This document shows, in pieces, positions 3,676 to 53,199 of a stretch of 64,000 nucleotides of DNA. The DNA comes from an uncultured Clostridia bacterium (GTDB taxonomy: Bacteria > Bacillota > Clostridia > Oscillospirales > Acutalibacteraceae): NCBI GenBank assembly GCA_944384845.1, contig CALWUZ010000212.1, forward strand, positions 567-64,566, given 5' to 3'. A program made the translations under genes and the position numbers. Numbering within the stretch: position 1 is the first letter of the stretch; every line of letters begins with the position of its first letter. The notes beneath the pieces are model-generated. The model did no database searches and was not told where the DNA came from. It worked only from the letters and a program-made list of their open reading frames with translations.

Positions 3676-6210
3676 TTAATTATTTTCTCTGTAATATCCC
3701 ACAGCGGGAACTGTAAAACCGTCTGAAATATAATCGGAATCACCGTAATTCACATAGATAACAGCACCGTTTTCATATTTGACGCGTACAACCTCGTCAG
3801 TCAGATAAACATGCTCGGTAATTGCCCTGTTGTTGAGACCGTTTAACGCTTCCCGTATCATTTTATAATTTAGTTGTATATCTTCTTTCAAATAGTCATA
3901 ATTAGTATTATAAATATAAGAATAATCAGTTTCAAAAAGTCTGTCAAAGGCATTCGCCGTCAGTATGTAATGCAGTCCGCTTCCGGTTTCAATAAGCTTA
4001 AGTACCGTTCTCTGAATATTGCCTGAACTGTTTACACATTCGGTGACATAATCTACATATCCGTGAAGCACAATCTGTACAAAAGGAATATCTCTGTAAT
4101 ATGCGTTGATCTCCGAAGAGTATGCCGGAAGGTTATTTATCAGATCCATATAAGGCAGTGCGTAGAGATTGCCGGCATCGCCCAATACCGGTATGTCTTC
4201 TTTAGCAATAGAATTGAGAATACCGGTTATTTCATTTAATGAGTAGCTTCTTCCGAAAAAATCACCGTCTGAATAATCGCCGTAAAGCATAGACGTAAGA
4301 CCCGAAACACCGATTCCGCTCTCAGACAATTCTTCATTTGAAATATAGGACTTATAAAGCTTACTGTAAGACTTAGGTGATACAAGACTGAACTTTGATT
4401 CTGTGTAGCTGTTTGTCTGAGCATCTGGCAGCATCAGCTTTACTATGGAATTATTTATGTTTCTCACTGCCTGCGAGGTTATGGAAAAACCATCACCGAA
4501 AAAGTTTTCGGTTACGGTAAAATTAATATCTAAATATGATTTTATATTATTTTCTTTTAATGTCCCAAGGAGTGTCCTGTAAGCTTTTTCTCCTCCGGCT
4601 GCTTCGCTGAAATTCAAAGCGCCCAGCTTTTGTCGGTTAATGCCCTTTTTATTCCAGCCGGTAAGCAATACGCTGATATTTTCTCCCCCGGCAAGCTTAC
4701 ACAACTCTTCGGAAATTTTTCCTGCCTCATTGAAGGTGGTAACTGCGTATTCACGGTTGACAGGTATAAAGCCCAAAGCTGTTGTATCATAATTAATAAC
4801 ATTTACAAACTCTGCCAACAGCAAAGCTTCCTCTCCATGAACTTTTTTGCTCAGAACCCCCTCTTCAATAAGGCGGTTTCTGTAATACACCGCCATCTCA
4901 GAATAAGCGCTGCTCTCCTGCAAATCACTGAAAAGCACATACTCTGCACAGAATATTTCATCCGCCACGTCTGCGGCAAACAGCTGAACCGGGTTTGAAG
5001 AGCTCATGGCATAGCTGTAAGTATCAATAAGATTAAAAGAGGGTGAAACAGCAGACGCAGCCGCATTTCGGTCAACACTTATTTCCGCCTGCTGATTTCC
5101 TGCTCCTAAAATGCAAAGATAGCCTCCGTAATTTTTGTACTGTCCGAATACCGGCAATGTACATTGCTCCGACATCTCCTCAAGACGTTCGGTTAAAGAA
5201 GCATTGCTGCCGTAAACAGGAAGACGCAGCTCAAGCTCATCCTCCTCATTTCCGGCTTTTATCAAGGCTCCGCATCCCGACGGGATAACAAAATATCCTT
5301 CGTCCTGACCCGCAATGCTGTCAAAATAAGGCAAAATATTAATTTCAGTCAACGGATAATCGCTGTAATATTGACAGTCCGCAGAGTTCACCTGCGCCTT
5401 AAAGCCATTATCTGTCAGAGTATAGCTTACCGAGACCCTGAAAGTCTGCGGATTTTCCCTTTCGGTTGTTGTATTCCCGTTGTCAAGGTTTCTGTCCTCT
5501 GATGTATATCCTGCGCTTCTGAATATTTCATCAGTACGTTTTTTCATAAGATTGGTAGACATATTGGTGAGAATGTAAAGATCTTCATTTCTGAGTCTTG
5601 GATATGTATTCAAAAGATACGTGCGTTCCTCGTCTTCATACTCATTCAATACATACAATCTGTATCTGCGCAATATATATTCTGCGTCTTCCTCATTCAT
5701 TCGGGCAAGAAATTTTTCCAATCTCTCTCTGGAAATAACATCAGGATAAACATAATCTGCCGACATTTCTCCGAAGCCGTATTCAACTTTTACTCCGTCC
5801 TTCAAAGTGAAAACCCTTACCTGGTTTTTATCAACGCTGCTTTCACTGCTGTAAAGAGTTACCTTAGTGGAATTATCGCTGAAATAACTGATAATCAATG
5901 CCGACGAGTACTTACTGTTTCCTGTATTATTGTCCGGTACGGATTTCCACACCCTTCCGGTGGGCTTATGTAAAATAATCGGATTTGCCTGTCCGTCCAG
6001 CAATAAAGAAAAATTTTCATTTTCCGCAGCTATATAACTGTCACTGCCTATAACAAGCTCCGTAATGTCTGTATCTGCCTGTGTGAAAGCAATATCCCCG
6101 CTGCTCATTCCGTAATTTACCGCCTCATCTCCGGAAAGAATAAAGGTCAAACCTGTAAACCCCAAGACAACTGCCAGAACGGTACACCAAGCTATTATTT
6201 TTCTTTTCAT
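3676..6210 (-). CDS. Exported ~840-aa protein of unknown function, N-terminal membrane anchor/signal (DUF5696-like); cassette copy A
   Basis: GGAGGG RBS at 6216-6221. N-terminus MKRKIIAWCTVLAVVLGFTGLTFIL is hydrophobic. It is a clear paralog of ORF 46694-49198, with shared blocks such as LPV(F/Y)G, (L/V)(L/R)L(T/S)GW, (I/V)PF(V/L)..VL(H/K)GYV(D/N)Y and G(S/A)GL(H/Y)(Y/F)ILTA. The DUF5696 label is from memory of database annotations of genes next to YIP1-family genes. Confidence 0.6.
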   Translation of the reverse strand: MKRKIIAWCTVLAVVLGFTGLTFILSGDEAVNYGMSSGDIAFTQADTDITELVIGSDSYIAAENENFSLLLDGQANPIILHKPTGRVWKSVPDNNTGNSKYSSALIISYFSDNSTKVTLYSSESSVDKNQVRVFTLKDGVKVEYGFGEMSADYVYPDVISRERLEKFLARMNEEDAEYILRRYRLYVLNEYEDEERTYLLNTYPRLRNEDLYILTNMSTNLMKKRTDEIFRSAGYTSEDRNLDNGNTTTERENPQTFRVSVSYTLTDNGFKAQVNSADCQYYSDYPLTEINILPYFDSIAGQDEGYFVIPSGCGALIKAGNEEDELELRLPVYGSNASLTERLEEMSEQCTLPVFGQYKNYGGYLCILGAGNQQAEISVDRNAAASAVSPSFNLIDTYSYAMSSSNPVQLFAADVADEIFCAEYVLFSDLQESSAYSEMAVYYRNRLIEEGVLSKKVHGEEALLLAEFVNVINYDTTALGFIPVNREYAVTTFNEAGKISEELCKLAGGENISVLLTGWNKKGINRQKLGALNFSEAAGGEKAYRTLLGTLKENNIKSYLDINFTVTENFFGDGFSITSQAVRNINNSIVKLMLPDAQTNSYTESKFSLVSPKSYSKLYKSYISNEELSESGIGVSGLTSMLYGDYSDGDFFGRSYSLNEITGILNSIAKEDIPVLGDAGNLYALPYMDLINNLPAYSSEINAYYRDIPFVQIVLHGYVDYVTECVNSSGNIQRTVLKLIETGSGLHYILTANAFDRLFETDYSYIYNTNYDYLKEDIQLNYKMIREALNGLNNRAITEHVYLTDEVVRVKYENGAVIYVNYGDSDYISDGFTVPAVGYYRENN

Positions 6211-6227: not shown

Positions 6228-8339
6228 TTAAAGTCTTAGGGTTATTTCTTCAATCAGCAATCCTATAAAGTCTGTCATTTGCTGAACAATCGTGATGCAA
6301 AGCAAAAACAAAAAAACTATAATGCCGATTGCAACTATAATAGCTATGATTGTGGCCAATGTTCTTAACGCCAAATACTGATGTACAACCAGTGTGCCGA
6401 CAAACAGCAAGAAGCCTATCCAGATATAAAAAATCATTCTGATTATGGTATATAGCGCTGCTTCGTCAAGTGAAAGACAATTACTGAGAATTATAAGAAG
6501 CGGAGTGCCTATTATAAACGGAGTAAGCGCATAACAGGAATACATATAAATATATTTGAACGTGCCCGAACCGTTCATAAGCGATGTTACCGACCAATTC
6601 GCAGCACACCACAGTCCAAAAGGCAAAAGAACAGTTAGAACGCCCTGTATCATTATATTAAAGCCCGCATCATTACTTCCTGCAAAAAGATAGCCTGTGG
6701 AAAACGTGCTTATAAGGTTAAGAAGAGTCACCGTTACAAGAATCGCCGTAGCAGACGAGAGCCTGCCTTTGCCCTCGAACTGCATATCCCAAAATCCATC
6801 AAACGGATGGCGCATTATGTAAAAACCGTATTTTATTCCTTCCCACAACGGCTTTTTCTTTTTAAATCCTTTGTTAAGTCTTTTACTATATATTTTTTTA
6901 GCGATAATCAGTACCAAAGCTGTAATAACAATCACACAAATAACAATTCCTGTTATTTCAGTCCCTATTATCTGCCTGTATTCTTTCAGGGCCTTTGAAT
7001 AGTTTTCAGTATCATCAGCCATTTTGAACCAATTCATAGCTTCGATATAGTTGCCGCTGCGAAGCTCGTTTTTACCCAGACCGACAAACGCAAGATTATT
7101 GCCGGAATGCATTTCAAGAAGATTTCTCCAGCACTGGCTTGAAGAAGTATAATCACCCGAAATCTGAGCGTCTATCGCCTTATTGATCAGCATTGTATAT
7201 TCTGTAGGACTGAATATTTTTACAGCTGCGTTACCGTAATCTGAAACCACAATGTTGTCTCTCCACCAACAAACAGCAGTCGGTTTCAGGAACTCATCCT
7301 TTTTATTTCCTAAATTTCCGAAAATATAAAGTAATTCTCCGGATTTATCATATGTAAACACTCTGCCTCTTGTACTGTCAAGAACACAATAAATACCGTT
7401 TTCCTTTACATCCACATCAATAAATCTTGATGCGTTTCCAGAATCTGCTATCCAGGAAACGGTTTCAATAAGATCACCTGCAGGCGGCATGCTGCCGGTA
7501 CGTTTGAGAACGTCAATATTTTTAGGATTAAGTCTTCGCACCGGAGCAAGCGTATTGTCGCTTCCGCCGCTCTTAATGTAACTCAGCATTTCAGAATCAG
7601 TATTTGTAGCAACAGTTGTATAAATAAATCCCTCTGAGTCGATGTCCAAAGCACTGTATTCGGTAGGAACAAACAAAAGCATTCGCGATAACTGCGCTTT
7701 AGTGGAAATTGACCGCCAAAAAAGCTCCGAAAGACTTGGTACAACCGGCACCGAACCGAAAAAGCCCAGAAAATTGCCTTCCATATCCATTTGATAGATA
7801 CCGTTTGTTTCATTATTTACAATTATATACAGACGCTCCGCATCGTCTACCACCAATTTATGCGGAAAAAACTCCACCGTAGAAAGCGTCTTTTCCGCAG
7901 GCGGAGCTCCTGTTTCATTAATATATTCTCCGCTGGCGTCAAGCTTTACTATTCTTTTGTTTCCTGTATCCGCAACATAAATAAAACCATCATCGCTTAT
8001 AAAAAAGCCTTCAGGCATATTAAATCCCAGGCTTTCCCCCAAAACGGAAACAAGCTTATATTCTTTATCTACAACAAAAATTTTACCCTGGGTTTTCTCA
8101 AGAATATACAGCATATCCCCATACACATTTATATCCGCAATATCATTTAAACTTTCGATTCCAAGAGATTGACTATCAACAGAAGCAATCATTTCATAAG
8201 AAGCAGGAGCCATTATCGGCTCTTGTTGATTATTATATGTGTAATTTTTATCAAAGGAAATGCTTGCCGCAGACGCATTTAAAACAGCTACGGCAGCAAT
8301 GACGCTGACAGAGGTAAACAGCTTTATGATTTTTTTCAT
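6228..8339 (-). CDS. Signal peptide + NHL-repeat beta-propeller + single TM + C-terminal Yip1-type 5-TM domain; cassette copy A
   Basis: Signal peptide ...VLNASAAS. NHL-type repeats, e.g. FNMPEGFFISDDGFIYVADTGNKRIVKLDASGEY. TM at aa 461-481, then basic loop KKIYSKRLNKGFKKKK, then HPFDGFWDMQFEGKG and five hydrophobic spans (Yip1 pattern). The GGAGG RBS overlaps the stop of the upstream permease. Confidence 0.75.
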   Translation of the reverse strand: MKKIIKLFTSVSVIAAVAVLNASAASISFDKNYTYNNQQEPIMAPASYEMIASVDSQSLGIESLNDIADINVYGDMLYILEKTQGKIFVVDKEYKLVSVLGESLGFNMPEGFFISDDGFIYVADTGNKRIVKLDASGEYINETGAPPAEKTLSTVEFFPHKLVVDDAERLYIIVNNETNGIYQMDMEGNFLGFFGSVPVVPSLSELFWRSISTKAQLSRMLLFVPTEYSALDIDSEGFIYTTVATNTDSEMLSYIKSGGSDNTLAPVRRLNPKNIDVLKRTGSMPPAGDLIETVSWIADSGNASRFIDVDVKENGIYCVLDSTRGRVFTYDKSGELLYIFGNLGNKKDEFLKPTAVCWWRDNIVVSDYGNAAVKIFSPTEYTMLINKAIDAQISGDYTSSSQCWRNLLEMHSGNNLAFVGLGKNELRSGNYIEAMNWFKMADDTENYSKALKEYRQIIGTEITGIVICVIVITALVLIIAKKIYSKRLNKGFKKKKPLWEGIKYGFYIMRHPFDGFWDMQFEGKGRLSSATAILVTVTLLNLISTFSTGYLFAGSNDAGFNIMIQGVLTVLLPFGLWCAANWSVTSLMNGSGTFKYIYMYSCYALTPFIIGTPLLIILSNCLSLDEAALYTIIRMIFYIWIGFLLFVGTLVVHQYLALRTLATIIAIIVAIGIIVFLFLLCITIVQQMTDFIGLLIEEITLRL

Positions 8340-8354
8340 ACCGACCTGTACCTC

Positions 8355-9212
8355 CTAATCCTTAATGCCCGAAGAGGACATTGTCTGCATTACATTTGAC
8401 TGTGAAAAAAGAAATACAGTAATCGGGGGCAGTATCATAATAAGTGAAACTGCCGCCGAAACACCGGTTCTTGCAATACCGCCGGACACTATATTTGACA
8501 GGGCCGTCGGAAGAGTCTTAAGATTTTCATCAAAAATAAACACGCCGCCTGTGGTCCCCCATATTCCCTGAAATGAAAATATAAGCAGCGTAAGCCATGC
8601 GGGCTTGACCATAGGCATTACTATCTGCATAAAAATACGGTTTTCTCCCGCCCCGTCTAAAGCTGCCGCTTCAAGCAAAGTATCCGGAACCATCTGATCC
8701 ATAAACTGTTTCATCAGAAAAAGCCCTATCGATGAAGGCAGCAGCGGCAGTATAATTGCCCAAAGAGTATTTATAAGGTGGAGTTTGGTCATAATTATAT
8801 AGTTCGGAATAGCTGTGACAACAGAAGAAAAAAGCAATGACAATACAACTAACTGAAATAATAAATTTCTTCCTTTAAAGTTCTTTTTTGAAAGTATGTA
8901 CGCCGCCATTGATGAAATAATAATATTCCCCGCCGTACCTATAACAGTTATAAATACGGAATTCAGCACATAGCGCGAAAAAGGAAGCCAGGAATCTCCC
9001 AAAAGCGATGACAAATTAATAAAATTATCAAAAGTGGGATTCTGCGGAAACAACTTAGGAGGAAATATAAACAGCTCGCTTAAAGGCTTAAATGCGTTTG
9101 AAAAAATAAATACCATAGGAAGAACCATAAACAGAGCTATTAAAAGCAAAAACAGAAATACTACAATATTACCGGCAACACTTCTGTATGACTTAGAGCC
9201 GATTTTACTCAT
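8355..9212 (-). CDS. Carbohydrate ABC transporter permease (MalG/LplC-type); cassette copy A
   Basis: Six hydrophobic spans and the EAA-loop motif LLEAAALDGAGENRIFMQIVMP. By eye it is about half identical to ORF 51290-52159. Confidence 0.85.
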   Translation of the reverse strand: MSKIGSKSYRSVAGNIVVFLFLLLIALFMVLPMVFIFSNAFKPLSELFIFPPKLFPQNPTFDNFINLSSLLGDSWLPFSRYVLNSVFITVIGTAGNIIISSMAAYILSKKNFKGRNLLFQLVVLSLLFSSVVTAIPNYIIMTKLHLINTLWAIILPLLPSSIGLFLMKQFMDQMVPDTLLEAAALDGAGENRIFMQIVMPMVKPAWLTLLIFSFQGIWGTTGGVFIFDENLKTLPTALSNIVSGGIARTGVSAAVSLIMILPPITVFLFSQSNVMQTMSSSGIKD

Positions 9213-9229
9213 TTCTTAAATTATCCTCC

Positions 9230-10123
9230 TTATGTTCCCACATTTTTAAGCAAACGCTTTATCATTTGATTGCAAAGCAGCATCGCCGCAAAAAGAATTG
9301 TAGCTACCGCGCAGGCATCTCCGAACTCGAATTTAATATCGGCAAAATCGGTCATATGATTTACAAGCGTATGCACTGCATAATCAGTACTGGGATTTCC
9401 GCATAAAGCCGCACCTACAGCGCCCACGGTAAACGCCCCTGTTATTGACATCACCGAGCCAAACAGCAGCTGCGGTTTCATCTGCGGTATCGTTATATAC
9501 CATAACTCCTGCCAGCGATTACGCACGCCGTCAATAGCTCCCGCTTCATAAAGCGACTGATCAACACCCTGTAAGCCTGCAACGAAGGATAAAAACTGTG
9601 TTCCCATACTGGTCCACATCGTAACTATTATTACGGCAGTCATCATATATTCGGTATCGGTAAGAAACTGTATCGGCGAACTGATAATACCGGTATTAAG
9701 AAGAAAAGCGTTTATATAGCCGAGCTGATCGCCGCTGAAGAGAAGCTGCCATATCATGTATGCATTGCCCGATATCGACGGTGCATAAATCAAAAATACC
9801 ATTGCCGTGCGAAGTCCGCGGTTAAGCTCATTAAGTACCCATGCGAGCATAAGAGCGCCTATATAGCTGAACGGACCGACCACCAAAGCCATCGTGACGG
9901 TATTTACGACTGCCTGTGTAAAAATTTCATCGTTAAAAAATAAATCGCTATAATTTTCAAACCCCACAAACTGCGGCGACTGCAGAAGATTATAATCCGT
10001 AAAGCTTAAAAACATCGCCATTAATACGGGTAAAATTACAAATAAAGCGAACAGAGAAAAAAACGGCAGCAGATAAATAATACAAATTTTATTTTTCCTC
10101 AGATTTTTTGAAATTCTATTCAT
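9230..10123 (-). CDS. Carbohydrate ABC transporter permease (MalF/LplB-type); cassette copy A
   Basis: Polytopic, with EAA loop LYEAGAIDGVRNRWQELWYITIPQM. Its ATG (10121-10123) shares one base with the TGA (10123-10125) of the upstream SBP gene. Confidence 0.85.
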   Translation of the reverse strand: MNRISKNLRKNKICIIYLLPFFSLFALFVILPVLMAMFLSFTDYNLLQSPQFVGFENYSDLFFNDEIFTQAVVNTVTMALVVGPFSYIGALMLAWVLNELNRGLRTAMVFLIYAPSISGNAYMIWQLLFSGDQLGYINAFLLNTGIISSPIQFLTDTEYMMTAVIIVTMWTSMGTQFLSFVAGLQGVDQSLYEAGAIDGVRNRWQELWYITIPQMKPQLLFGSVMSITGAFTVGAVGAALCGNPSTDYAVHTLVNHMTDFADIKFEFGDACAVATILFAAMLLCNQMIKRLLKNVGT

Positions 10124-12930
10124 CAGCTATCTGTCTCCAATCCGAATTCCCTTCGTTTCTTGGTAAGCTCTGCATTTATTGTCTGTGTATATTCATTTAC
10201 GGTCTCCCGAACATCGGCATCCTCATTGATAATTTTACGGAAAATATTGTTTATATGACGATTAAGAAAATAACCGCCGGGGACCTGTTCGATAGACATA
10301 GCATTTTCCCGCTGAACATTAAGCGTGCTAAGCGCCGCCGCAGACCAGGAGAGTCTGCCGAAAGCCTCTATATTGGCAGTTGCATATCTTCCGGGAATAC
10401 CCTGCTTATTCTCAATTGCCGCAGCATAGGCGTACTGAGCATCCGCGCCGGTAAACCATTTTACAAAGCTCCATGCCTGTTCCGGATTTTCGGTGGTATT
10501 CATTATCATTGCAGCAGTAGTAGTGCTCAGGGAAATATGTCTCACGCTTCCGTCCTCACGCCTTGTTCCCGGAACCGGATACATACTCCACAGTCCGCTT
10601 ATTTCAGGCGCCGACACCTCAAGTGTGTTAAATGTACTGAAATCCGCGATTCCTATCGGCATATCACCGCTTCGGAAGCGGTTAACAAAATTATAAGACA
10701 TAAGCAGTGAATAGTCAGAATATAGCTCTGTCCATTTTGTAAACGCTTCTATTGCCTCCTCCGTATTAATATCAACCGATCTTCCGTTATCCTTATAGAT
10801 GTTGCTTTGATTTTGAAACAGCAGTAACGCAAAACCATTGACCGTACCGCTGTCCGGATAGGCAAATTCCATATTATTCTGTTGCAAAACCGTAAGGCAG
10901 TTATATACGTCTTCCCAAGTTTCCGGAACTTCAAGTCCGATTTCGGTCAAGATATCATCTCTCACAAACATTACGTCGCATACCTGAGTGAGAGGTATAC
11001 CATATACGCCGCCGTCATACGTATACGGAATCATAGCCTGCGGATAAAATCTTGCGGCGACCTCGCTGTAATCCGGAAATTCCGAAAGGTCAAGAAGCGC
11101 TCCGCGGGCGGCAAAGTTCATAGGCATCCCCTCGTCGGCAAACAAGTATACATCCGGCTCTATACCGGCAACAGTTGCCTGCAAAATTCCTCCTGAAACC
11201 AATTTAAGGCTGACGCCTATATTACTTTCCGGAGTAAAATCATTGTCTGTCAGTTCTTTTATTATCTGATACTGGTCCCTGCCCAGAGTCAGCCAAACCT
11301 CTATCGCCTCACCGTCTCCGTAAACACTGCCTATCATTCCGTAATCCTCGGCAAATGATTTAAAGAAAAGCTGCGTTCCAAATAAAATGTTTTTAAAAAA
11401 GCCGGCTTCCTCTTTTACTGTATCAGCGTTTTTGGGCAGCACCTGAATGCAGTCAACGGTGAGCGGCTGCGAGGTACAGCTTTGAATCCAGTCGCTTAGT
11501 CCGGTCAGGTTACTGTTGAAAGTACTCAGATACTGCGGCAATGTTTCGGGGTACTCCAAAAACTCATTTAACTGTCTGATTATTTCATCAAGCTTTGCAG
11601 TTCCCTCACCGCTGCCGCCGTTTTGTATAAGAAGCCAATCGAAAAGCTCCTGCAAAACTTGTTTCTGCTCTTTAAAAATTTCTAATACATCAGGAAGATT
11701 TTTTTCTATCTGATAATCCCTGTATTTATCAGGAGTAGCACCTGTCACCATAATAATTCTGCGGTATGCCTCGTTAAGTCTGAATAAGGATTTCTGTGCA
11801 ACATTAAGCGCTTTCGCCTGCTCTCCAAGAGTCACCTCAAGCGTAATAGTATGATCGCCTTCCTCTAAAAAATAGAGATACGGATTTCCGTCCGCATCTG
11901 CAAGGCGAATCACCTGCCATCCGCTGCCGTACGGAAATTTAACTGATTCCATTTCACTGAAAGGCACTTCGCCGTCAATTAAAAGCCTGCGGTAGCTTGA
12001 AAGTCCGCTTGTAAAATTGTTTTTGAATCTGAACGCCAATGTATAATAACCGCTTTTTTCAGCGTGGAATTTCCACGAAACAGATTGTCCTTCAGCACTC
12101 CATCCGGAGCCGCCTAAACTGTTCCAAACCTGCAGGCCTTCAAAAACAGGATTGGTTATAGCTGAAGTTCGGTCGCAAAGCTCCGTAATCGAAGCGTTGG
12201 TGCGTATATATGGCTTTTCGGCCTCAATGGTAATAGCTTCAGCGTTATTTTCCGAACCTTCTGTATAATTTTTGCTTATCTCATTATAAGAAGCTTTCGG
12301 TTTATAGCAATAAAGCATTACCGATTTGAGTTCTATGCTCCCCTTTGCAGCGGTAATAGTTATATTATTTTCACCCTCGGCAAAATAAAAGCACAGCGGC
12401 TCTGTATGCAAACCCGAATTATCAGTAAGTACGGCTGACTGCCATTCATCGCTTTCATTCAGAGAAACAGTATACTCATTGCCGCGTTTGTCCTTTTCGG
12501 TATCTGCAGAAAGCCATGAACGCTTTAAAGTAAACTCCGCCGCCTCTCTGAAAGGACGCTCCCCGTTAATATCTATAGAGCAGGTACCGTCCCCGTCATT
12601 ATCTGACACTATCTTATATATCATTTTAACAGATGCCAGGCACTCATTTATATTTACGGCAAACGTAAAACTATCACCTTCGCTGATGACAACATTTTGC
12701 TCCGCAGTTATATCATCGCTTATATAAGCAACATCCTTATATCTTTCTATATAAGCGTCATATTCTACAGCAGAAGACGTACCTGCCATACGCTCGATTG
12801 CATCATTCAAATCCGGAAAAGCATCATAAGCTTCTTTATTTTTCTGAAAAACAGCAAAAACGGTTATTGCTATAACTGCAGCCAATACGGCGGCTGTCAC
12901 CGCTATAATTCTCTTTTTGTAATTAGCCAT
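10123..12930 (-). CDS. Giant (935 aa) membrane-anchored extracellular solute-binding protein with two N-terminal beta-sandwich (CBM-like) domains; cassette copy A
   Basis: GGAGG RBS and N-terminal TM IIAVTAAVLAAVIAITVFAVF. Two ~150-aa beta-rich segments (e.g. ITIEAEKPY...GWSAEGQSVSWKFHAEKSGYYTLAFRF...GDHTITLEV). The C-terminal ~420 aa has a family-1 SBP pattern (EVWLTLGRDQYQ..., ...GIPLTQ..., ...PVPG...). Paralog of 53200-55992. Confidence 0.75.
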   Translation of the reverse strand: MANYKKRIIAVTAAVLAAVIAITVFAVFQKNKEAYDAFPDLNDAIERMAGTSSAVEYDAYIERYKDVAYISDDITAEQNVVISEGDSFTFAVNINECLASVKMIYKIVSDNDGDGTCSIDINGERPFREAAEFTLKRSWLSADTEKDKRGNEYTVSLNESDEWQSAVLTDNSGLHTEPLCFYFAEGENNITITAAKGSIELKSVMLYCYKPKASYNEISKNYTEGSENNAEAITIEAEKPYIRTNASITELCDRTSAITNPVFEGLQVWNSLGGSGWSAEGQSVSWKFHAEKSGYYTLAFRFKNNFTSGLSSYRRLLIDGEVPFSEMESVKFPYGSGWQVIRLADADGNPYLYFLEEGDHTITLEVTLGEQAKALNVAQKSLFRLNEAYRRIIMVTGATPDKYRDYQIEKNLPDVLEIFKEQKQVLQELFDWLLIQNGGSGEGTAKLDEIIRQLNEFLEYPETLPQYLSTFNSNLTGLSDWIQSCTSQPLTVDCIQVLPKNADTVKEEAGFFKNILFGTQLFFKSFAEDYGMIGSVYGDGEAIEVWLTLGRDQYQIIKELTDNDFTPESNIGVSLKLVSGGILQATVAGIEPDVYLFADEGMPMNFAARGALLDLSEFPDYSEVAARFYPQAMIPYTYDGGVYGIPLTQVCDVMFVRDDILTEIGLEVPETWEDVYNCLTVLQQNNMEFAYPDSGTVNGFALLLFQNQSNIYKDNGRSVDINTEEAIEAFTKWTELYSDYSLLMSYNFVNRFRSGDMPIGIADFSTFNTLEVSAPEISGLWSMYPVPGTRREDGSVRHISLSTTTAAMIMNTTENPEQAWSFVKWFTGADAQYAYAAAIENKQGIPGRYATANIEAFGRLSWSAAALSTLNVQRENAMSIEQVPGGYFLNRHINNIFRKIINEDADVRETVNEYTQTINAELTKKRREFGLETDS

Positions 12931-12939
12931 ACTTCCTCC

Positions 12940-13836
12940 TTATCCCACAAGTCCTGTCGTTTCTATGCTTTCAACAAGAAAACGTTTTGTAAACATAAAA
13001 AGAAGGAGCAAAGGCAGTATATACATTACAACACTTGTGTTTTTAAGAATCGCCCGGTAATAATAATCATTTTTGAGGTCTGTCAATTCAAACTGCATAT
13101 CTATAGTCGAAAGCTTTGTCCAGATAAACTCCGTATTAGGAAAAAATATTTCGGAATATGTAGGGTCTGTCCATTTCCATACAAATGCGAACATAAAGCA
13201 TGTAAAGAATACCGCCACCGCTCCCGGCAGCATTATTTTTGCGAAAACCTTAAACGTACCTGCTCCGTCGACCGCCGCAGCTTCCTCAAGCTCTTTCGGA
13301 TATCCTTTGAAAGACTGCCGCATAATATATATGATAAGTCCGTCCTTTAAACCCACTGCGGTAGCTGACAGTAAAAACATAGGAAGCGGGGTGGTAAGCA
13401 AATTCCAGTCAAACGGTCCGTAGCTTTGAAACTGAAAATACAGCGGAGCGAAATATATGCTGTACGGTACAAGCAGCGTAAGAATCACACAGCCGAACAA
13501 CAAATTACGAAAAGGAAATTTAAAACGCGCAAAGCCGTAGGCAACAAGAAGGCAGGATATCATTTCTATTAAACAAAGCGAAATATTAAGAGCAAGCGAT
13601 ATACCGATTGTTTTCCAATAATCAAGAAATATTGAAGCATCAACATAATTTTGAAGCGTAGGACTTTTCGGGATAAAACGTACAGCAGTATCATATATAT
13701 CTGAGCTTTGCATAAAGGATATAAGCAAGGTAATTATTAAAGGATAAATAATAATAAAGCTCAGACCGACCAATATCAAATAACGGAAAAAACCGCCTAA
13801 TATCCATATTGTTTTCTTTTTTGTTTCTAATTTCAT
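12940..13836 (-). CDS. Carbohydrate ABC transporter permease (MalG-type)
   Basis: Polytopic, with EAA loop LEEAAAVDGAGTFKVFAKIMLP. Paralog of 44840-45778. Confidence 0.85.
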   Translation of the reverse strand: MKLETKKKTIWILGGFFRYLILVGLSFIIIYPLIITLLISFMQSSDIYDTAVRFIPKSPTLQNYVDASIFLDYWKTIGISLALNISLCLIEMISCLLVAYGFARFKFPFRNLLFGCVILTLLVPYSIYFAPLYFQFQSYGPFDWNLLTTPLPMFLLSATAVGLKDGLIIYIMRQSFKGYPKELEEAAAVDGAGTFKVFAKIMLPGAVAVFFTCFMFAFVWKWTDPTYSEIFFPNTEFIWTKLSTIDMQFELTDLKNDYYYRAILKNTSVVMYILPLLLLFMFTKRFLVESIETTGLVG

Positions 13837-13849
13837 CTGTATTCCCTCT

Positions 13850-14764
13850 TTAGTTGTAATGCTTCATCAGTTGTTTTATTAATAATACGAAAAAGCATAA
13901 AACAGCAATTATTATAAAAAAGTATGTCCAAGCAAGAGATGCGGCATATCCGAACTGAAAGCTGGAAAAGTTATAGTCAGTGATAGTTTGCATAACGGGA
14001 TTTACATTATTGGAAAAAGCGTCTATCACAGTGTAAACAACATTTACAAGCGTTTGCGGCAGCACCATCGGAAAAGTTATTTTCCAAAAGCTTTCCCAGG
14101 CGGTTGCCCCCTCGATTTGCGAAGCCTCATAAAGAGACCTCGGTATTGCTTTTAAAGCAATTAAAAAAACAAGTATCTGTATCCCGGAAGAATTTATAAC
14201 CTCTAATATATTTGTAATAGCATATATTATGTACTCTATAAAACCGTTTGGCAGACCCATTCGCATGAAGAGGTCACCAACCAGTGAAGCATTGAAAAGA
14301 GAAGTGTCCTCGCCTGTCGCGGAAGCGGCATTAATTATTGTCCGCCGGATTATATCGTCGCTGATCAAATTCGGCATAATACCTGCGGAAACAATAACAG
14401 GAATAAAAAAAATAATCTGAAATACCGGCTGTCCCGGAAATTTACCGTTTAAAAAAACAGCCACAAGCATGCTGAAAATAAGAATTATAGGAACATTGAC
14501 CGTCATACTTGAAAGCGAATCCAGCAAAAGCTTACGGAAATCAGTATCAACCGTAAAAGCACGCTTATAATTTTCAATTCCCATAAATTCAAGCGAGACT
14601 TTTCCGTCAAATTTTAAATCATTGAAGCTGTAAATAAAAGACTGCATCATAGGGAAGAAAATAAATGCAAAAAAGCCGATTATGAAGGGCAGCACAAAAA
14701 TAAGACCCTTCAGTTCCCTTTTTCTTACAAGCCGACTTTGTTTCCAAAAATCAAAAAAATTCAT
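13850..14764 (-). CDS. Carbohydrate ABC transporter permease (MalF-type)
   Basis: Polytopic, with EAA loop LYEASQIEGATAWESFWKITFPM. Paralog of 45796-46689. Confidence 0.85.
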   Translation of the reverse strand: MNFFDFWKQSRLVRKRELKGLIFVLPFIIGFFAFIFFPMMQSFIYSFNDLKFDGKVSLEFMGIENYKRAFTVDTDFRKLLLDSLSSMTVNVPIILIFSMLVAVFLNGKFPGQPVFQIIFFIPVIVSAGIMPNLISDDIIRRTIINAASATGEDTSLFNASLVGDLFMRMGLPNGFIEYIIYAITNILEVINSSGIQILVFLIALKAIPRSLYEASQIEGATAWESFWKITFPMVLPQTLVNVVYTVIDAFSNNVNPVMQTITDYNFSSFQFGYAASLAWTYFFIIIAVLCFFVLLIKQLMKHYN

Positions 14765-32370: not shown

Positions 32371-32509
32371 ATTTGGTTCACTCCTTTGCAGATATTTAAA
32401 CATATGTACATCCAATTTACAATACAATTTCCATAATGATTTTTATAATTTTCAAAACAATTCTTGACATGCTCAGGAATTAAATATATTATAATTAAAG
32501 GTGCTATAT

Positions 32510-38378: not shown

Positions 38379-38390
38379 TTCCTTTACCCC

Positions 38391-40828: not shown

Positions 40829-40837
40829 CTAATTTTG
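40820..40837 (-). repeat. Imperfect 9-bp tandem duplication containing the in-frame TAG
   Basis: The minus strand reads CAAAATTAG CAAAATTAT (Q-N-stop Q-N-Y). The two 9-mers differ only at the last base (G vs T). Confidence 0.9.
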
Positions 40838-44839: not shown

Positions 44840-45778
44840 TCAGCCTACAAGACCGCTGCGCTCGACGCTTTGAACAAAAAAGCGCTGCGTAAAAAGGTAA
44901 AGCACCAGCAGAGGAACTATCAAAAAAAGTATGCCCGCGTATGCTATCAGGTTGCGGGTGACCTCATCAGCCGCTCCGCCCGAATGAAGACCGTTCAGAG
45001 AGGCCGCTAAATTTGACAGCATTTCCGTATCGCCCATAAAAATAGGAACAAAATCAGAGTCAAGCCAGGTCCATACAAAAGCAAACAAAAATACAGTAAT
45101 CATCATTGTCAGCGAGCCGGGTACCATTATCCGAATAAACGCGCCGACAGGACCGGCGCCGTCAATATAGGCCGCTTCCTCAAGTGCCGGAGGCATTGTT
45201 CGGAAATACTGACGCATTATCAGGATATAGAGCCCGCACCTGAAGCCGCTGGCGGTAACTGCCAAAAAGATTGACGGAAGCTGCGTATTGATAAAAGAAA
45301 TTCCCTGACCGTTATTTAAAAGCGGAATCAATCCGAAGAGTCTGAAATTCCGGAAAAAGGTATAAAGCGGAATTTGAAGTATAACAGGCGGAAGAACCAG
45401 TCCCACAACAGCAAGTATCAAAAGCGGTTTATTAAGAAAGAACTTGAATCTTGCCAGCCCGTAGCCTGCCATAGTACAGCTGACGGTCTGTAAAAAAGCT
45501 ACGGTAAATACAAATTGAAAAGAATAAAGATAGGAATTTCCGATGTCAAGAAGCTCTGCCGCCTTTTTAATATTATCAAGCGTAAAATGCTTGGGTATAT
45601 ATGAAACCGATAGATCATAAACATCCTCAGAGGTCATAAACATCGATGTGATTTGGGTAAAAAAAGGATATATTACAACAAAGGCAAGCAAAATAAAGAG
45701 TATTGCCCGCGCGGCGTTTATAAGTATACCGACTGTATGTTTTCTTAAAAAAGCAGAAGCGTTCAACATTTTTTTCAT
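44840..45778 (-). CDS. Carbohydrate ABC transporter permease (MalG-type)
   Basis: Polytopic, with EAA loop LEEAAYIDGAGPVGAFIRIMVP. Confidence 0.85.
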   Translation of the reverse strand: MKKMLNASAFLRKHTVGILINAARAILFILLAFVVIYPFFTQITSMFMTSEDVYDLSVSYIPKHFTLDNIKKAAELLDIGNSYLYSFQFVFTVAFLQTVSCTMAGYGLARFKFFLNKPLLILAVVGLVLPPVILQIPLYTFFRNFRLFGLIPLLNNGQGISFINTQLPSIFLAVTASGFRCGLYILIMRQYFRTMPPALEEAAYIDGAGPVGAFIRIMVPGSLTMMITVFLFAFVWTWLDSDFVPIFMGDTEMLSNLAASLNGLHSGGAADEVTRNLIAYAGILFLIVPLLVLYLFTQRFFVQSVERSGLVG

Positions 45779-45795
45779 GCTCTGTCACCTCTTTT

Positions 45796-46689
45796 CTAAT
45801 CAGAATAAGAAACATACCGGTTTATAATTAAATAAACAAATGCGACTATTAAAATAACAATCAGCAAATATGCCCAGGCCATTGCGCTGCCGATTCCGAA
45901 ATCAAGGTTTGTAAAGCATTCTTCCTTCACTCTTGAAATAAGAGAGTTTGAAACGCTGGTAAACGAATCTATGATGCAGTAAATCGCCGAAACCAGTATC
46001 ATCGGGCTTACAATCGGCAGGCTTATTTTCCAAAACACTTCCCAACCTGTAGCCCCCTCTACATATGAGGCCTCATAGACCGATTTAGGCACCGACTGAA
46101 GCCCTGCCAGCATAATAATTATCGGTATAACAGACATTGCAAGAATATTATCAATGTTATCTACGGAGGAAGTAAGCAAATTGGTTAAGCCCTCGCTGAT
46201 GTTAAGCTGTTCAAGAAAGCCGGCAAATACTCCGGAAAACACAGCTGTATTTGCAGAGCCTTTCTGCTCTATATTGTCTCTTACAGCGTCGCTGTTTAAA
46301 ATCTGCATAACAATATTTGAATTCATTATCAAAGGAAGAAACAATATTGTTCTTGCAGCGCCTCTGCCCTTGAAATCACTGTTTAAAACGCTTGCCAGAA
46401 AAAAACTGAAAATGATTACAACCGGTACATTCAGCGCCGTATCCTTCAATGTGGAGACAAGAGTTCTGTTAAACGAAGCGTCAACCGTAAAAATCCATTT
46501 ATAGTTTTCTATGCCGACAAATGATATATCGTAACCTGCCGACGTGGCCTTGACATCGCCGAAACTGTAAACCAATGACAGTATTATGGGATAAACTATC
46601 GCGACAAGAGCGCCGAGAATAAACGGCGCTGTAAACAGATAGCCGTATTTCCGGCGCCTCGCCTGAAGCGAGGCTCTTTCTTTTTTCAC
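45796..46689 (-). CDS. Carbohydrate ABC transporter permease (MalF-type)
   Basis: GTG start with an AAGGGGTGA RBS. EAA loop VYEASYVEGATGWEVFWKISLP. Confidence 0.85.
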   Translation of the reverse strand: MKKERASLQARRRKYGYLFTAPFILGALVAIVYPIILSLVYSFGDVKATSAGYDISFVGIENYKWIFTVDASFNRTLVSTLKDTALNVPVVIIFSFFLASVLNSDFKGRGAARTILFLPLIMNSNIVMQILNSDAVRDNIEQKGSANTAVFSGVFAGFLEQLNISEGLTNLLTSSVDNIDNILAMSVIPIIIMLAGLQSVPKSVYEASYVEGATGWEVFWKISLPIVSPMILVSAIYCIIDSFTSVSNSLISRVKEECFTNLDFGIGSAMAWAYLLIVILIVAFVYLIINRYVSYSD

Positions 46690-46693
46690 ACTG

Positions 46694-49198
46694 TCACCCC
46701 TTTACAACAAGATAATCTCCTGCTGCTATCGTTATTTCTTCAATAATAGCCGGATTTTCTCCGAAATTAACAAAAACCTTAGCGCCGTTTTCAAAAACAG
46801 TTTCGCTTACTTCTCTTTCAATCCATCGAAAACCGCTTATCCGCTGGTCCGCAACACACGCAAAATCGTCACAGTATTGTTTTACGCTGTCGGCAATGGT
46901 ATTCTCCCACACATTGAATCCGGTGGAATAGAAGCTGTCATAGTCGCTTTTTATAACCTTTTCCGAATTTTCGGCGGTCAGTATAAAATAAAGTCCAGCA
47001 CCTGTCTGTGCAGAATTTAAAACTGCCCTTTGAATATCTCCCGACAGATTTACCGGTTTGCCTGAATAATTCACATAGCCTTTAAGCACCATCATCAGGA
47101 AAGGAACGGAATAATCAGTACAGTCATAGCCGTTTGAATCAAGAGGCAAATTCACGGCGCTCTTTATATACGGAAGAACATAAGCGTTTGCGCCGTTAGT
47201 CATAAGATCAGCTTTTCCCGAAAGCTTTTTTACTATATCGATAATTTCATTTTTCGCCTCGCACGCATCCACCGGTGAGTTCTCATTATAATCGGCATTC
47301 AGATCCGAACCGATATTCCGCAGTGAAAGTGAGCTCAGCTGATTCGACTCCGCATATTCTAAATAAGCATTTGCTTCTTTCCTCAAAGCGCCGGAATTAT
47401 TGACAATGCGTGTCACCTGAAATTGTTTTTGTACAAAAGACGCAGGATCAAAAGTAAATACCGTACCTACCGCCTTATTTATCATTCTTATTGCTGAAGA
47501 ATTGCCTGCAGACGCCGTGTACTGTATATCGGCATCGGGATAAAACGCAATATTGCTATCTTTAAAGCTTTCGGTTAATTCGTTGAAACCCTTGCTTCCT
47601 CCAAGCTTGCCTTCAGGTCTTAGTCCGGTAATCGAGCTGTGCGACAATCCTCCGCCAAACCATCCGCTCAGCCGTACATTTATATTGCTTATGCCTTTCT
47701 CCGTAATACATTTTGAAAGGTTATAAACCTGTTCAAAATCAGTCATTGCTATTGATTCGGTATACTGAACACCGAGCTTTTGTCCCTGCTTGCCTATCAT
47801 GCCGATAAATTCTATATTAAGCGGAACGGCTTCAGTTTTTTCTTTATCCTCAAAAATACGCTGCCGATAGAGCTCTGCCATCGCGTTATAATCCGAGTTT
47901 CCTTCCTGAAGAAAAGAATACCTTACAGAAAGGTCTCCGGAATAACGCCGCTTCTGCACCACAGTAGAAGCTTCTTTCCTTCCCGACGCAAGAACAGAGG
48001 TATATGTTTCTCTGAAATTAAAGTTAACGCCCGCATAAGGAACATCGGAGAAATCGCCCGGATAAGCTATTACCTCTGCAATACTGTCGCCTCCGGTTAT
48101 TTCCGCGAACATCGCCGCCCCGGAACGGTGCACCCCGTATACCGGAAGAGAGGCGTTCATAAAATTTGAGGTTTTCTCTCCGTTTGCAAGAGAATATCCG
48201 GTTCCGTATACCCGCACCTGATATTGATGACCGTTGCTCTTATTGTTATAAAAGTTCATTACCGAACCGCTTCCGTCCGGAAGAAGAAAATAACCGCTTT
48301 CTTCAGAAGCCGGCGACCCGAAATATTTCATAAGTGTCAGGTCAATGAGCGGAAAATCGGAATACATTTCAATTTTATCGTTCGGGATACTGACGATAAG
48401 GTCACTGCCGTCGAGAATGTATTCGACCGTAATATTAAATCCGGGTTCCGTAACCGTCGAATCATCGCCGTTAAAGCTTGATTTGTCTTGCTCATACATT
48501 TCCGGAGTATATCCGGCTAAGGTTAGTATTTCAGAAAATTCACTTCTGACATTATAGGATGTAAGCACCGAGTCATTTATTACATACATCGCCTTTTCTT
48601 TCAAAATCGGATACCGTTTGGTATAACCGCTTTCATCATCAGACGAATTTTCCTTTTTAGGATCATAAAAATAATAATAGTTCTGAAATTTCATCAAATC
48701 AAATTCATCGTCAAGATTCGAGCAAAGCTCTTCATAGCGTTCAGCCGAAATCACTTCAGGAATCAATATTTGCTCCGTAAAATTTCCTATGCTGTAATGA
48801 ACACTTAAAATGCTGTCTTCGCTTTCAACTCTGTACTGACCGTTCGCAACAGAATTTTGGAATGAATCGTATTTGCCTATCGTACCTGTAGACTCAAGAT
48901 AAGACAGTTCTATAACCGCTCTTGATGATTCATTTTTGCTCTCGCCGTTTGAAGAATTCCAAACGGAGCCGTCCTTTTTATTGACAACACGTATTTCTGT
49001 CGTGTCGGGATTCATATATAAATACAAATCATCATTTTCAAGATAAAGTTCGTAATCTTCCGATCCTATATCATTCCCGGCAGTGTTCTGACCGCATATG
49101 CTTGCCTGATTGATATTTTCTGATATTTCAGCGCCGCAGCCTGATAAAAAAACCGCCGCGCAAACAACAGAAGCCGTAATACAAACAGCCTTTTTCAT
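46694..49198 (-). CDS. Exported ~834-aa lipoprotein of unknown function (DUF5696-like); cassette copy B
   Basis: ATG at 49198 with a GGAGGG RBS gives MKKAVCITASVVCAAVFLSGC (lipobox). The longer track ORF would overlap the upstream gene. Paralog of 3676-6210. Confidence 0.6.
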   Translation of the reverse strand: MKKAVCITASVVCAAVFLSGCGAEISENINQASICGQNTAGNDIGSEDYELYLENDDLYLYMNPDTTEIRVVNKKDGSVWNSSNGESKNESSRAVIELSYLESTGTIGKYDSFQNSVANGQYRVESEDSILSVHYSIGNFTEQILIPEVISAERYEELCSNLDDEFDLMKFQNYYYFYDPKKENSSDDESGYTKRYPILKEKAMYVINDSVLTSYNVRSEFSEILTLAGYTPEMYEQDKSSFNGDDSTVTEPGFNITVEYILDGSDLIVSIPNDKIEMYSDFPLIDLTLMKYFGSPASEESGYFLLPDGSGSVMNFYNNKSNGHQYQVRVYGTGYSLANGEKTSNFMNASLPVYGVHRSGAAMFAEITGGDSIAEVIAYPGDFSDVPYAGVNFNFRETYTSVLASGRKEASTVVQKRRYSGDLSVRYSFLQEGNSDYNAMAELYRQRIFEDKEKTEAVPLNIEFIGMIGKQGQKLGVQYTESIAMTDFEQVYNLSKCITEKGISNINVRLSGWFGGGLSHSSITGLRPEGKLGGSKGFNELTESFKDSNIAFYPDADIQYTASAGNSSAIRMINKAVGTVFTFDPASFVQKQFQVTRIVNNSGALRKEANAYLEYAESNQLSSLSLRNIGSDLNADYNENSPVDACEAKNEIIDIVKKLSGKADLMTNGANAYVLPYIKSAVNLPLDSNGYDCTDYSVPFLMMVLKGYVNYSGKPVNLSGDIQRAVLNSAQTGAGLYFILTAENSEKVIKSDYDSFYSTGFNVWENTIADSVKQYCDDFACVADQRISGFRWIEREVSETVFENGAKVFVNFGENPAIIEEITIAAGDYLVVKG

Positions 49199-51289: not shown

Positions 51290-52159
51290 TTATTCTTTGA
51301 TGCCAGACGACATCATAGTTTCCATTACATTACTTTGTGTTATGATAAATATTATAATTGGCACAATCATCATAAGCATTGATATAGCCGCGCTTTCACC
51401 GGTTCTTGAAATACCTGCCGATACCGCCTGCGACATCGCGTAAGGAAGAGTTTTTAGCTGTTCGCTGTAAATCGTTCCGCTTGCCGTTGTACCCCAGAGG
51501 CTTTGAAAAGAAAAAATTATAAGCGTAAGCCATGCGGATTTTACCGAAGGCATTACAATAGTCCAGAAAATTCGCTGCTCCCCCGCACCGTCAACGCGCG
51601 CCGCTTCAAGTATTGTATCGGGCACGTTGACCATAAACTGCTTCATAAGAAAAACATTAAAAGACGAGCCGAATGTAGGCAAAAAAATTGACCAATATGT
51701 GTCAATAACTCCTATTCTTGACATAATCAGATAATTAGGAATGGCCGTAACCGCCGTTGTAAACATCATAGCTGTAACAACCATATTAAACATAAAGTTT
51801 TTTCCCTTGAACTTTTTCTTTTCAAGCACGTAACCCGCCGCCGAGGCGACAAATATCGAGCCGGCAGTGCCCACAACAGTTATAAGAATTGTATTTGACA
51901 CATAACGGGTAAAAGGAACCATCGTCTCGCTGAACAAAGCTGAAATTCCCTTAAAATTATTTAAAGTAGGGTTACGTACAAAAAAGCGAGGCGGGAATAC
52001 GAAAAGCTCGTCAAGCGGTTTAAACGCGTTGCTTATCACATAAACCATCGGCAATATCATAACCGAAGCAAGCAAACATAAAAACACAAAATTTGCTGTC
52101 CGGCCAGCAAAGGATCTCCCCGCGCGCGGTTTAATTACCCGCAGTTTTATATGCTTCAT
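51290..52159 (-). CDS. Carbohydrate ABC transporter permease (MalG/LplC-type); cassette copy B
   Basis: EAA loop ILEAARVDGAGEQRIFWTIVMP. The C-terminal QSNVMETMMSSGIKE matches the copy A tail QSNVMQTMSSSGIKD. Confidence 0.85.
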   Translation of the reverse strand: MKHIKLRVIKPRAGRSFAGRTANFVFLCLLASVMILPMVYVISNAFKPLDELFVFPPRFFVRNPTLNNFKGISALFSETMVPFTRYVSNTILITVVGTAGSIFVASAAGYVLEKKKFKGKNFMFNMVVTAMMFTTAVTAIPNYLIMSRIGVIDTYWSIFLPTFGSSFNVFLMKQFMVNVPDTILEAARVDGAGEQRIFWTIVMPSVKSAWLTLIIFSFQSLWGTTASGTIYSEQLKTLPYAMSQAVSAGISRTGESAAISMLMMIVPIIIFIITQSNVMETMMSSGIKE

Positions 52160-52180
52160 CTGCTCTGCACCCTAATCTTT

Positions 52181-53092: not shown

Positions 53093-53199
53093 AAATAATC
53101 TCCATTCTGCCGCTGAAAAAAGCAGCATAAACAGGTACGGAAAAACATATAAAGCGCAATTTATAATAAAAATTTATATTATTGCTAATCCGGAGCTTT

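Follow-up and report, generated by a model that had tools for sequence, protein, structure and literature searches.

The only characterised bacterial protein of the Yip1 family known to us is YknW, the fourth component of the YknWXYZ ATP-binding cassette (ABC) transporter of Bacillus subtilis and B. amyloliquefaciens, where it is neither transporter nor ATPase but an accessory that modulates the assembly of the complex (PMC4887032; PMC4338810). An earlier sequence-only reading of the DNA studied here overlooked this protein when it called the bacterial Yip1 members essentially uncharacterised. This DNA is a stretch of 64,000 nucleotides from an uncultured Clostridia bacterium of the Acutalibacteraceae (GCA_944384845.1, contig CALWUZ010000212.1, positions 567-64,566 of the forward strand; hereafter the window), and it encodes two copies, A and B, of a protein in which an extracellular NHL beta-propeller is fused to a Yip1-type membrane domain (NHL/Yip1). 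Like YknW, NHL/Yip1 is a bacterial polytopic membrane protein of the Yip1 family encoded in an ABC-transporter operon. Nevertheless, YknW is described as working with a MacB-type exporter and a membrane fusion protein, whereas the gene sets of the window contain type-I sugar importers of the CUT1 class and solute-binding proteins (SBPs), and neither of its two cassettes has a membrane fusion protein or MacB-type gene. Given the composition of the YknW system, NHL/Yip1 is not a member of it. To our knowledge, YknW also has neither a propeller ectodomain nor a partner of the DUF5696 family, the family of the protein encoded next to NHL/Yip1.

Other known proteins resemble either end of the molecule. 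The best natural bacterial match to the family profile is PknD of Mycobacterium tuberculosis (1rwi), which also has an extracellular six-bladed NHL propeller tethered by one transmembrane (TM) helix, but PknD carries a cytoplasmic Ser/Thr kinase where NHL/Yip1 has the Yip1 bundle, no signalling domain and a place in a transport operon. The eukaryotic Yip1/Yif1 (YIPF) proteins belong to the same Pfam family over its full length (PF04893) and share five predicted TM helices, a cytosolic N-terminus and an exoplasmic C-terminus; they differ in serving traffic between endoplasmic reticulum and Golgi and in binding Rab GTPases, neither of which exists in bacteria, and we know of no propeller fusion among them. 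At the level of the operon, the Gram-positive CUT1 utilisation loci are similar in having an SBP, paired BPD_transp_1 permeases, adjacent glycoside hydrolases (GHs), a soluble regulator and no dedicated ATPase gene, but the present module adds a second importer, a TM-anchored SBP of ~930-950 aa, NHL/Yip1 and DUF5696. The module belongs with the Gram-positive ABC-based glycan utilisation loci having a Yip1-type accessory, and its novelty lies in the propeller-Yip1 protein with the obligate partner of GH129 type, in the giant SBP and in the tandem importers. No literature was found on DUF5696 (PF18952) or on the module, nor any linking bacterial Yip1 with NHL, SBPs or glycoside hydrolases, and the protein family is catalogued only under 'YIP1 family protein' or 'gluconolactonase'.

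The comparison of 81 related loci, each within its fetched stretch, reveals a sugar-uptake set of eight genes that stays fixed whatever glycosidases surround it. Most often the order is [SBP]-giant SBP-F1-G1-NHL/Yip1-DUF5696-F2-G2-[SBP], in which F1/G1 and F2/G2 are permease pairs 1 and 2, and all nine module segments lie within the fetched stretch in 62 loci. DUF5696 comes directly after NHL/Yip1 in every one of the 79 loci with room for it, as it does in the cultured Paenibacillus lautus; in the reverse test, the most distant DUF5696 relatives found (23-25% identity) were also preceded by NHL/Yip1 and had the same flanking genes. The giant SBP and pair 1 are found downstream in L026, L039 and L041, and in L031, L036, L051-53 and L060 none occurs upstream before the fetched flank ends. 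The carbohydrate-active enzymes beside the module in other loci include GH26+GH2, GH130+GH5, GH106, GH13 and GH30+GH35, and the regulator may be of the AraC or LacI type or absent from the vicinity. Since both the flanking enzymes and the regulators vary, the module is substrate-independent hardware. Its fixed composition and the adjacency to DUF5696 argue that NHL/Yip1 is probably a core part of a common, undescribed glycan-harvesting machine. Concerning its role, we propose, with a probability slightly below one half (about 0.45), that NHL/Yip1 would be a non-catalytic membrane hub holding the GH129-like DUF5696 protein and the giant SBP beside the ABC importers.

The family is widespread. 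In a scan of one genome per species, which gives a lower bound, at least 595 species-level genomes encode relatives of NHL/Yip1, and all the loci whose lineage is named in the record are from Bacillota. The carriers include Acutalibacteraceae, Ruminococcaceae, Oscillospiraceae, Lachnospiraceae, Paenibacillus, Cohnella, Halanaerobiales, Mahella and Limnochordia; the best match, in Acutalibacteraceae, has 60% identity and the gene order of cassette A. An exhaustive search with the Yip1 part returned 1544 clusters (50% identity) at E<=1e-3 and 1020 at E<=1e-10. In two of the loci (L082, L083), a gene for a DUF624 (YesL-like) membrane protein lies downstream of the module, beside LacI and GH130 genes.

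That both copies truly carry an NHL propeller and a Yip1 domain is confirmed, and their topology is predicted from hydropathy and charge. At the curated Pfam cut-offs, NHL (PF01436) reaches 46.6 bits in copy A and 72.5 bits in copy B (cut-off 20), and Yip1 47.1 bits in copy A (aa 507-678) and 57.5 bits in copy B (aa 493-661; cut-off 28.6), with a match that is nearly end to end (profile positions 2-172 of 173). The two copies are 31% identical across their full length (E 7e-101) and both are arranged, from the N- to the C-terminus, as a signal peptide, a six-bladed NHL propeller, two TPR-like hairpins, one TM helix, a basic loop and finally the five helices of the Yip1 domain. The start of copy A is the ATG at 8339, with a GGAGG Shine-Dalgarno sequence 10 nt before it, and cleavage of its signal peptide is predicted from the AXA motif alone. 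An AlphaFold2 (AF2) model of copy A, built from 50 homologues, has a predicted TM-score (pTM; TM here for template modelling) of 0.74 and a predicted local distance difference test (pLDDT) score mostly of 85-95 across aa 31-378. Searched with Foldseek, the ectodomain corresponds to the NHL propellers of TRIM2, TRIM71, Thin and Brat (TM-score 0.72-0.78 by target) and to the PknD sensor (0.74), and the family profile matches the PknD and TRIM NHL structures with E 1e-29 to 1e-34 (PknD, E 2.8e-31). In NCBIfam there were only ScyF-like NHL matches, far below threshold. The conserved residues of the propeller are those of the repeated structural NHL motif (a D per blade, N.R), to which the family adds a helical insertion of its own at aa ~203-225 (ELFWR..STK.Q...P.E); an obvious active site is not apparent among the conserved propeller columns. 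For the TPR-like segment, the family profile aligns aa 389-442 to consensus TPR proteins and AF2 gives four helices at 380-440, whereas the single-sequence Pfam TPR_2 score of 12.8 bits is below the cut-off of 27. By charge analysis, the ~430 residues of aa 30-461 form an acidic ectodomain. In the Yip1 part, hydropathy gives five hydrophobic spans (527-545, 558-580, 601-622, 635-655, 664-686), AF2 gives helices at 527-547, 562-588, 594-621, 624-653 and 657-702, and charge together with hydropathy predicts a cytoplasmic N-terminus and a C-terminus outside the cell. An exported NHL propeller followed by a TPR-like segment, one TM helix, a basic loop and a five-span Yip1 domain, with copy B of the same architecture, is what the sequence-only reading had claimed; profiles, hydropathy, structure prediction and the full-length alignment of the copies bear this out, both copies pass the profile check of the NHL and Yip1 assignments, and the residue and DNA boundaries it gave agree within a few residues with the topology predicted here.

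The DUF5696 protein that follows is modelled with confidence (AF2 of copy A: pLDDT 89.6, pTM 0.86) and has the overall fold of the GH129 type: an N-terminal beta-sandwich, a (beta/alpha)8 barrel and a C-terminal beta-domain. Its closest whole-chain Foldseek matches are ZgGH129 (5opq; E 1e-28, TM-score 0.70) and NagBb (0.72), with a range of 0.70-0.74 by target, followed by GH101, GH36 and GH31. The DUF5696 family profile also finds GH129 by sequence (E 9e-10), a distant match whose alignment ends ahead of the catalytic strands, and a sub-profile of the catalytic stretch matched nothing meaningful. Four residues (D645, R654, N681 and E741 in the numbering of copy A) are conserved in >90% of the DUF5696 relatives, D645 and E741 being possible equivalents of the nucleophile Asp and the acid/base Glu of GH129. 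DUF5696 further differs from the GH129 and GH101 enzymes in being membrane-tethered and always paired with NHL/Yip1. Judging from the modelled fold and the distant profile match, it may be a candidate for an unrecognised glycoside-hydrolase family. The genes of both partners are very close: the Shine-Dalgarno sequence of DUF5696-B directly abuts the stop codon of NHL/Yip1 copy B, and L084 and L085 show a 4-nt overlap of the two, an arrangement that suggests translational coupling. We list NHL/Yip1 as co-transcribed with, and tightly coupled to, this GH129-like, membrane-tethered protein.

The co-divergence of the parts points to the same partner. When the pairwise-distance matrices of 64 modules were correlated, the NHL ectodomain and DUF5696 had the highest coefficient of all pairs (r = 0.95), above the 0.89-0.90 obtained within the permease pairs; paired permeases interact in all known type-I ABC importers. 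Once the common trend was removed, the partial r was 0.71 for the ectodomain and DUF5696, 0.53 for Yip1 and DUF5696, and 0.43-0.44 for either the ectodomain or Yip1 with the N-terminal region of the giant SBP, whereas that of the ectodomain or Yip1 with any permease ranged from -0.11 to 0.14, although the G1 gene is adjacent. Although it is indirect and can be inflated by shared rates, this co-divergence suggests that NHL/Yip1, DUF5696 and the giant SBP make up an extracytoplasmic unit. Of the options listed by the sequence-only reading, a capture element, a sensor and a transporter accessory or assembly factor, the last is favoured, but adjacency and co-divergence single out as its tightest partner DUF5696, which had gone unmentioned, and not the permeases proposed there for testing. 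The parts of the module also differ in conservation: compared with cassette A, 61 modules have a mean identity of 50-54% in permease pair 1 (F1/G1), 41% in the C-domain of the giant SBP, 38% in Yip1, 36-37% in permease pair 2 (F2/G2), 35% in the NHL ectodomain, 31.5% in the N-region of the giant SBP and 26% in DUF5696. Between the two cassettes of the window, the identity is 54-57% for pair 1 and 33-35% for pair 2, and only ~22-27% between one pair and the other; identities being higher within than between pairs, each pair is orthologous across the cassettes. The conservation of pair 1 between cassettes A and B and over the 61 modules (~50%, against 26-45% for the rest), with flanking enzymes that differ, suggests that this pair has a constant function or partner.

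The Yip1 domain matches its Pfam family in all 23 relatives examined. HPFDGFWD is invariant or nearly so among these and belongs to a fuller motif, HPFDGFWDLK.E.RG, ahead of the first Yip1 helix; LWC..NWS.TTLMDGEG is conserved after the second helix and a histidine (H653) at the cytoplasmic end of the fourth. Most of the conserved motifs are thus on the predicted cytoplasmic face, and a conserved C-terminal E...R pair lies in the tail predicted outside the cell. No PDB chain matched the Yip1-domain profile even at E 10, and in the Foldseek search with the whole chain, propellers took up the entire list. In many genomes the protein is split into an NHL-TPR-TM gene of ~485 aa, often annotated 'gluconolactonase', and a following 'Yip1 family protein' of 206 aa. 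The best 120 matches of a Yip1-domain profile search are all stand-alone proteins, and among the matches listed by the exhaustive Yip1 search, 147 further clusters comprise 91 fused and 31 stand-alone forms. The fusion found in the window is one of two forms, of which the split one is likewise very common. A third arrangement occurs on two contigs of one metagenomic lineage (L082:1558-3948; P0117/P0118), where permease G1 and the NHL-TPR-TM protein form a single in-frame fusion, after which come Yip1 as a gene of its own, DUF5696 and pair 2; here the former signal peptide acts as a TM link, which is topologically consistent. The existence of split and fused forms, together with the fusion of G1 to the propeller protein, argues that these parts are functionally linked.

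In the window, both copies of NHL/Yip1 sit in equivalent gene sets of the minus strand made up of a small SBP, a giant SBP, permease pair 1, NHL/Yip1, DUF5696 and permease pair 2 (Table 1). The NHL/Yip1 and DUF5696 genes lie between the ABC importer with the giant SBP and a second, ordinary ABC importer. The claimed context of a glycan-uptake operon is well founded, both copies being within such SBP/permease/DUF5696 sets beside GH genes. The expected parts of a CUT1-type importer are present, namely extracellular SBPs (SBP_bac_1/8) and two BPD_transp_1 permeases, but no importer-type ABC ATPase gene was found in the window despite its four permease pairs; in Bacillota, this ATPase is usually encoded elsewhere and shared (MsmX/MsmK type). 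The sole ABC ATPase of the window is an exporter-type protein with fused transmembrane and nucleotide-binding domains (60658-62409, plus strand), unrelated to the cassettes. The N-terminal half of the giant SBP belongs to no Pfam family in copy A, has only sub-threshold matches to CBM35 and Golvesin_C in copy B, and has no PDB relative. Unlike the ordinary SBP of the same module, the giant SBPs are mostly TM-anchored and are not lipoproteins. The N-terminal anchors or lipoboxes of DUF5696, the giant SBP and the small SBP imply that all three are extracytoplasmic.

Table 1. Coordinates in the window of the two cassettes and of the parts of NHL/Yip1 copy A
Feature	Position	Strand	Basis
NHL-TPR-TM-Yip1 protein copy A, 703 aa	6228..8339	-	Open reading frame; Pfam NHL and Yip1 above cut-off; AF2 pLDDT 86
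NHL-TPR-TM-Yip1 protein copy B, 687 aa	49210..51273	-	Open reading frame; Pfam; full-length alignment; hydropathy
Copy A: N-terminal signal peptide or anchor, aa 1-24 (KK, hydrophobic core, A-S-A)	8268..8339	-	Hydropathy; AF2 helix 2-19, then disordered 20-30
Copy A: six-bladed NHL beta-propeller ectodomain, aa ~31-378	7206..8249	-	Pfam; profile matches; Foldseek; conserved columns
Copy A: two TPR-like helical hairpins, aa 380-443	7011..7202	-	Family profile; AF2 helices 380-440
Copy A: TM helix, aa 462-480, continuous with stalk helix 444-487	6900..6956	-	Hydropathy peak 3.17; AF2 helix 444-487
Copy A: basic loop, predicted cytoplasmic, aa 481-526, with HPFDGFWD motif	6762..6899	-	13 K/R vs 4 D/E; motif conservation
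Copy A: Yip1 domain, aa 507-703, five TM helices and conserved C-terminal E..R tail	6231..6821	-	Pfam PF04893; hydropathy; AF2
DUF5696 protein A, 844 aa, N-terminal TM anchor	3676..6210	-	Pfam DUF5696 433 bits; AF2; Foldseek; Shine-Dalgarno sequence AAGGAGGG
DUF5696 protein B, lipobox LSGC	46694..49198	-	Pfam 512 bits; true start is ATG 49198
Giant TM-anchored SBP A, 935 aa: ~530-aa N-terminal region and CUT1-type SBP domain	10123..12930	-	Pfam SBP_bac_1/8 at aa 555-839; PDB sugar SBPs
Giant SBP B, 930 aa	53200..55992	-	SBP domain confined to the C-terminal half
Permease pair 1, cassette A: F1 9230-10123, G1 8355-9212	8355..10123	-	BPD_transp_1
Permease pair 1, cassette B: F1 52181-53128, G1 51290-52159	51290..53128	-	Sequence comparison
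Permease pair 2, cassette A: F2 13850-14764, G2 12940-13836	12940..14764	-	Sequence comparison
Permease pair 2, cassette B: F2 45796-46689, G2 44840-45778	44840..46689	-	Sequence comparison
Ordinary-size SBP, cassette A, 497 aa	17155..18648	-	Pfam SBP_bac_1
Ordinary-size lipoprotein SBP, cassette B, 501 aa	43281..44786	-	Pfam silent; relatives in related loci carry SBP_bac_1

The enzymes associated with the two cassettes differ. Cassette A has three GH16 genes, one of them with a dockerin, and a GH20 gene, and downstream of cassette B there are three tandem GH5 genes (33913-39611, minus strand) encoding 1171, 317 and 406 aa, the largest with InlB-B-repeat-like domains. The 64 kb contain three regulators of the AraC family (26047-26880, 32501-33271 and 56350-57702, all on the plus strand), divergently placed and flanking both cassettes; the regulator of cassette A has a cupin sugar-binding domain, and that of 450 aa beside cassette B has an N-terminal region of 350 residues without a recognised domain and, having no TM helix, is soluble. 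Two genes upstream of cassette A (21263-23848 and 24018-25715, minus strand) encode proteins with dockerins, one of them a GH16 enzyme whose dockerin is of type I, and the organism therefore also has a cellulosome-type surface display of enzymes. The glycan loci also include large open reading frames without a Pfam family, all on the minus strand: 18651-21242 (863 aa), 40829-43270 (813 aa, with a hydrophobic N-terminal anchor) and 39608-40561 (317 aa).

Several roles may be considered for NHL/Yip1. If it is a hub, as we propose, the propeller and TPR ectodomain would bind DUF5696 and, probably, the giant SBP through its N-terminal region, and this ectodomain may in addition touch the glycan chain. 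The Yip1 bundle would fix this assembly in the membrane beside the permeases, in a manner resembling the part of YknW in YknXYZ assembly, and its cytoplasmic-face motifs (HPFDGFWD, NWS.TTLMDGEG and H653) would contact a constant partner, for example the cytoplasmic face of the permeases or the shared ATPase. Glycan fragments made at the surface could then be released straight onto the binding proteins and imported. Yet several considerations weigh against the hub. The mirror-tree correlation can reflect a shared evolutionary rate and linkage instead of contact, and the near-zero co-divergence with the permeases weakens the idea of a YknW-like docking to the transporter. Moreover, DUF5696-B is a lipoprotein, whereas most of its relatives are TM-anchored, which makes a conserved intramembrane contact with DUF5696 unlikely. 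Finally, the Yip1 bundle could serve an independent function, such as transport or flipping.

A broader version of the hub would unite NHL/Yip1, DUF5696, the giant SBP and the two ABC importers in one physical surface machine, a Gram-positive counterpart of the SusCD 'utilisome' of Bacteroidota, with the Yip1 bundle as its membrane hub and with interchangeable glycosidases that would let it be reused for a wide variety of polysaccharides. This version is tentative, and we lean against it as a whole.

Alternatively, the propeller could be a surface glycan-binding protein that passes poly- or oligosaccharides to the SBPs, in parallel to SusD and the surface glycan-binding proteins or to BtuG, which captures B12 for BtuB. 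An exported propeller within a glycan-uptake operon is what such a role predicts, its ectodomain is among the fast-diverging parts (35% mean identity), as are those linked to the substrate, and the ligand-capturing surface propellers BT1954 and BT2095 are also listed by Foldseek, at low TM-scores. Nevertheless, the ectodomain has no signature of a carbohydrate-binding module or lectin, its conserved residues are the structural NHL repeats and one helical insertion, and it tracks DUF5696 above all else, which fits a protein partner; the Yip1 domain would also be left unexplained. Glycan capture as the principal role seems unlikely to us, but it is possibly compatible with the hub, the two not being exclusive.

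The closeness to DUF5696 may be read in yet another way, with NHL/Yip1 as a dedicated membrane-anchored foldase or assembly factor that folds, exports or activates this one protein. Dedicated foldases have precedents in the lipase-specific foldases and in LnbY, which serves the GH136 enzyme LnbX, and the strict adjacency, the translational coupling and the strongest co-divergence would all be expected of one. However, five membrane helices and conserved cytoplasmic motifs would be superfluous in a chaperone, and neither the fusion to permease G1 nor the co-divergence with the N-region of the giant SBP is explained, so that a foldase appears quite unlikely.

That the propeller is an extracellular enzyme, with a lactonase or lyase activity of the SMP-30/gluconolactonase, strictosidine-synthase or PAL type towards products derived from glycans, is improbable. 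The 'gluconolactonase' names given to the split forms in databases and the weak Pfam matches to SGL, Str_synth and DUF5128 would suggest it, as would the presence of PAL and virginiamycin B lyase among the lower Foldseek matches, but SGL (PF08450) reaches only 13.4 and 14.8 bits where the cut-off is 26.3, and Str_synth 16.6 where it is 25, and with these sub-threshold scores the enzyme was rejected as the main explanation. In addition, the closest relatives, by structure as by sequence, are NHL domains that bind and do not catalyse, no conserved metal-binding or catalytic constellation stands out beyond the repeated NHL Asp, and a single chemistry would be hard to fit to modules whose enzymes act on alpha-glucan, beta-mannan, beta-glucan, galactan and rhamnosides. 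Least probable of all, and likewise rejected as the main explanation, is the sensor, here taken as a transmembrane protein whose Yip1 domain would relay ligand binding by the propeller to an AraC regulator, by analogy with PknD: although the membrane-anchored extracellular propeller resembles the PknD sensor, AraC regulators flank both cassettes and the cytoplasmic-face motifs are conserved, there is no output domain, be it kinase, helix-turn-helix, GGDEF or another, the loops on the cytoplasmic side are short, the regulators are soluble and vary in type between loci (AraC, LacI or none nearby), and the gene is always inside the transporter operon beside DUF5696 and not beside the regulator.

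Bacillota have a major part in the degradation of glycans from the diet, the host and plants, yet accounts of their uptake systems usually stop at an SBP, two permeases and a shared ATPase. The core of NHL/Yip1, DUF5696 and the large SBP recurs with many sets of glycosidases in bacteria of the gut, rumen, soil and digesters, with several copies per genome. If its parts form one complex, this would show how Gram-positive cells couple the depolymerisation of glycans at their surface to import. In that case, DUF5696 would gain a function, possibly as a new family of glycosidases akin to GH129, and there would be a tractable bacterial model for the Yip1 membrane fold, which works by a mechanism that is unclear in eukaryotes as well. 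If the comparison with the utilisome is true, a prokaryotic Yip1 domain would for the first time have a defined molecular role in the uptake of nutrients.

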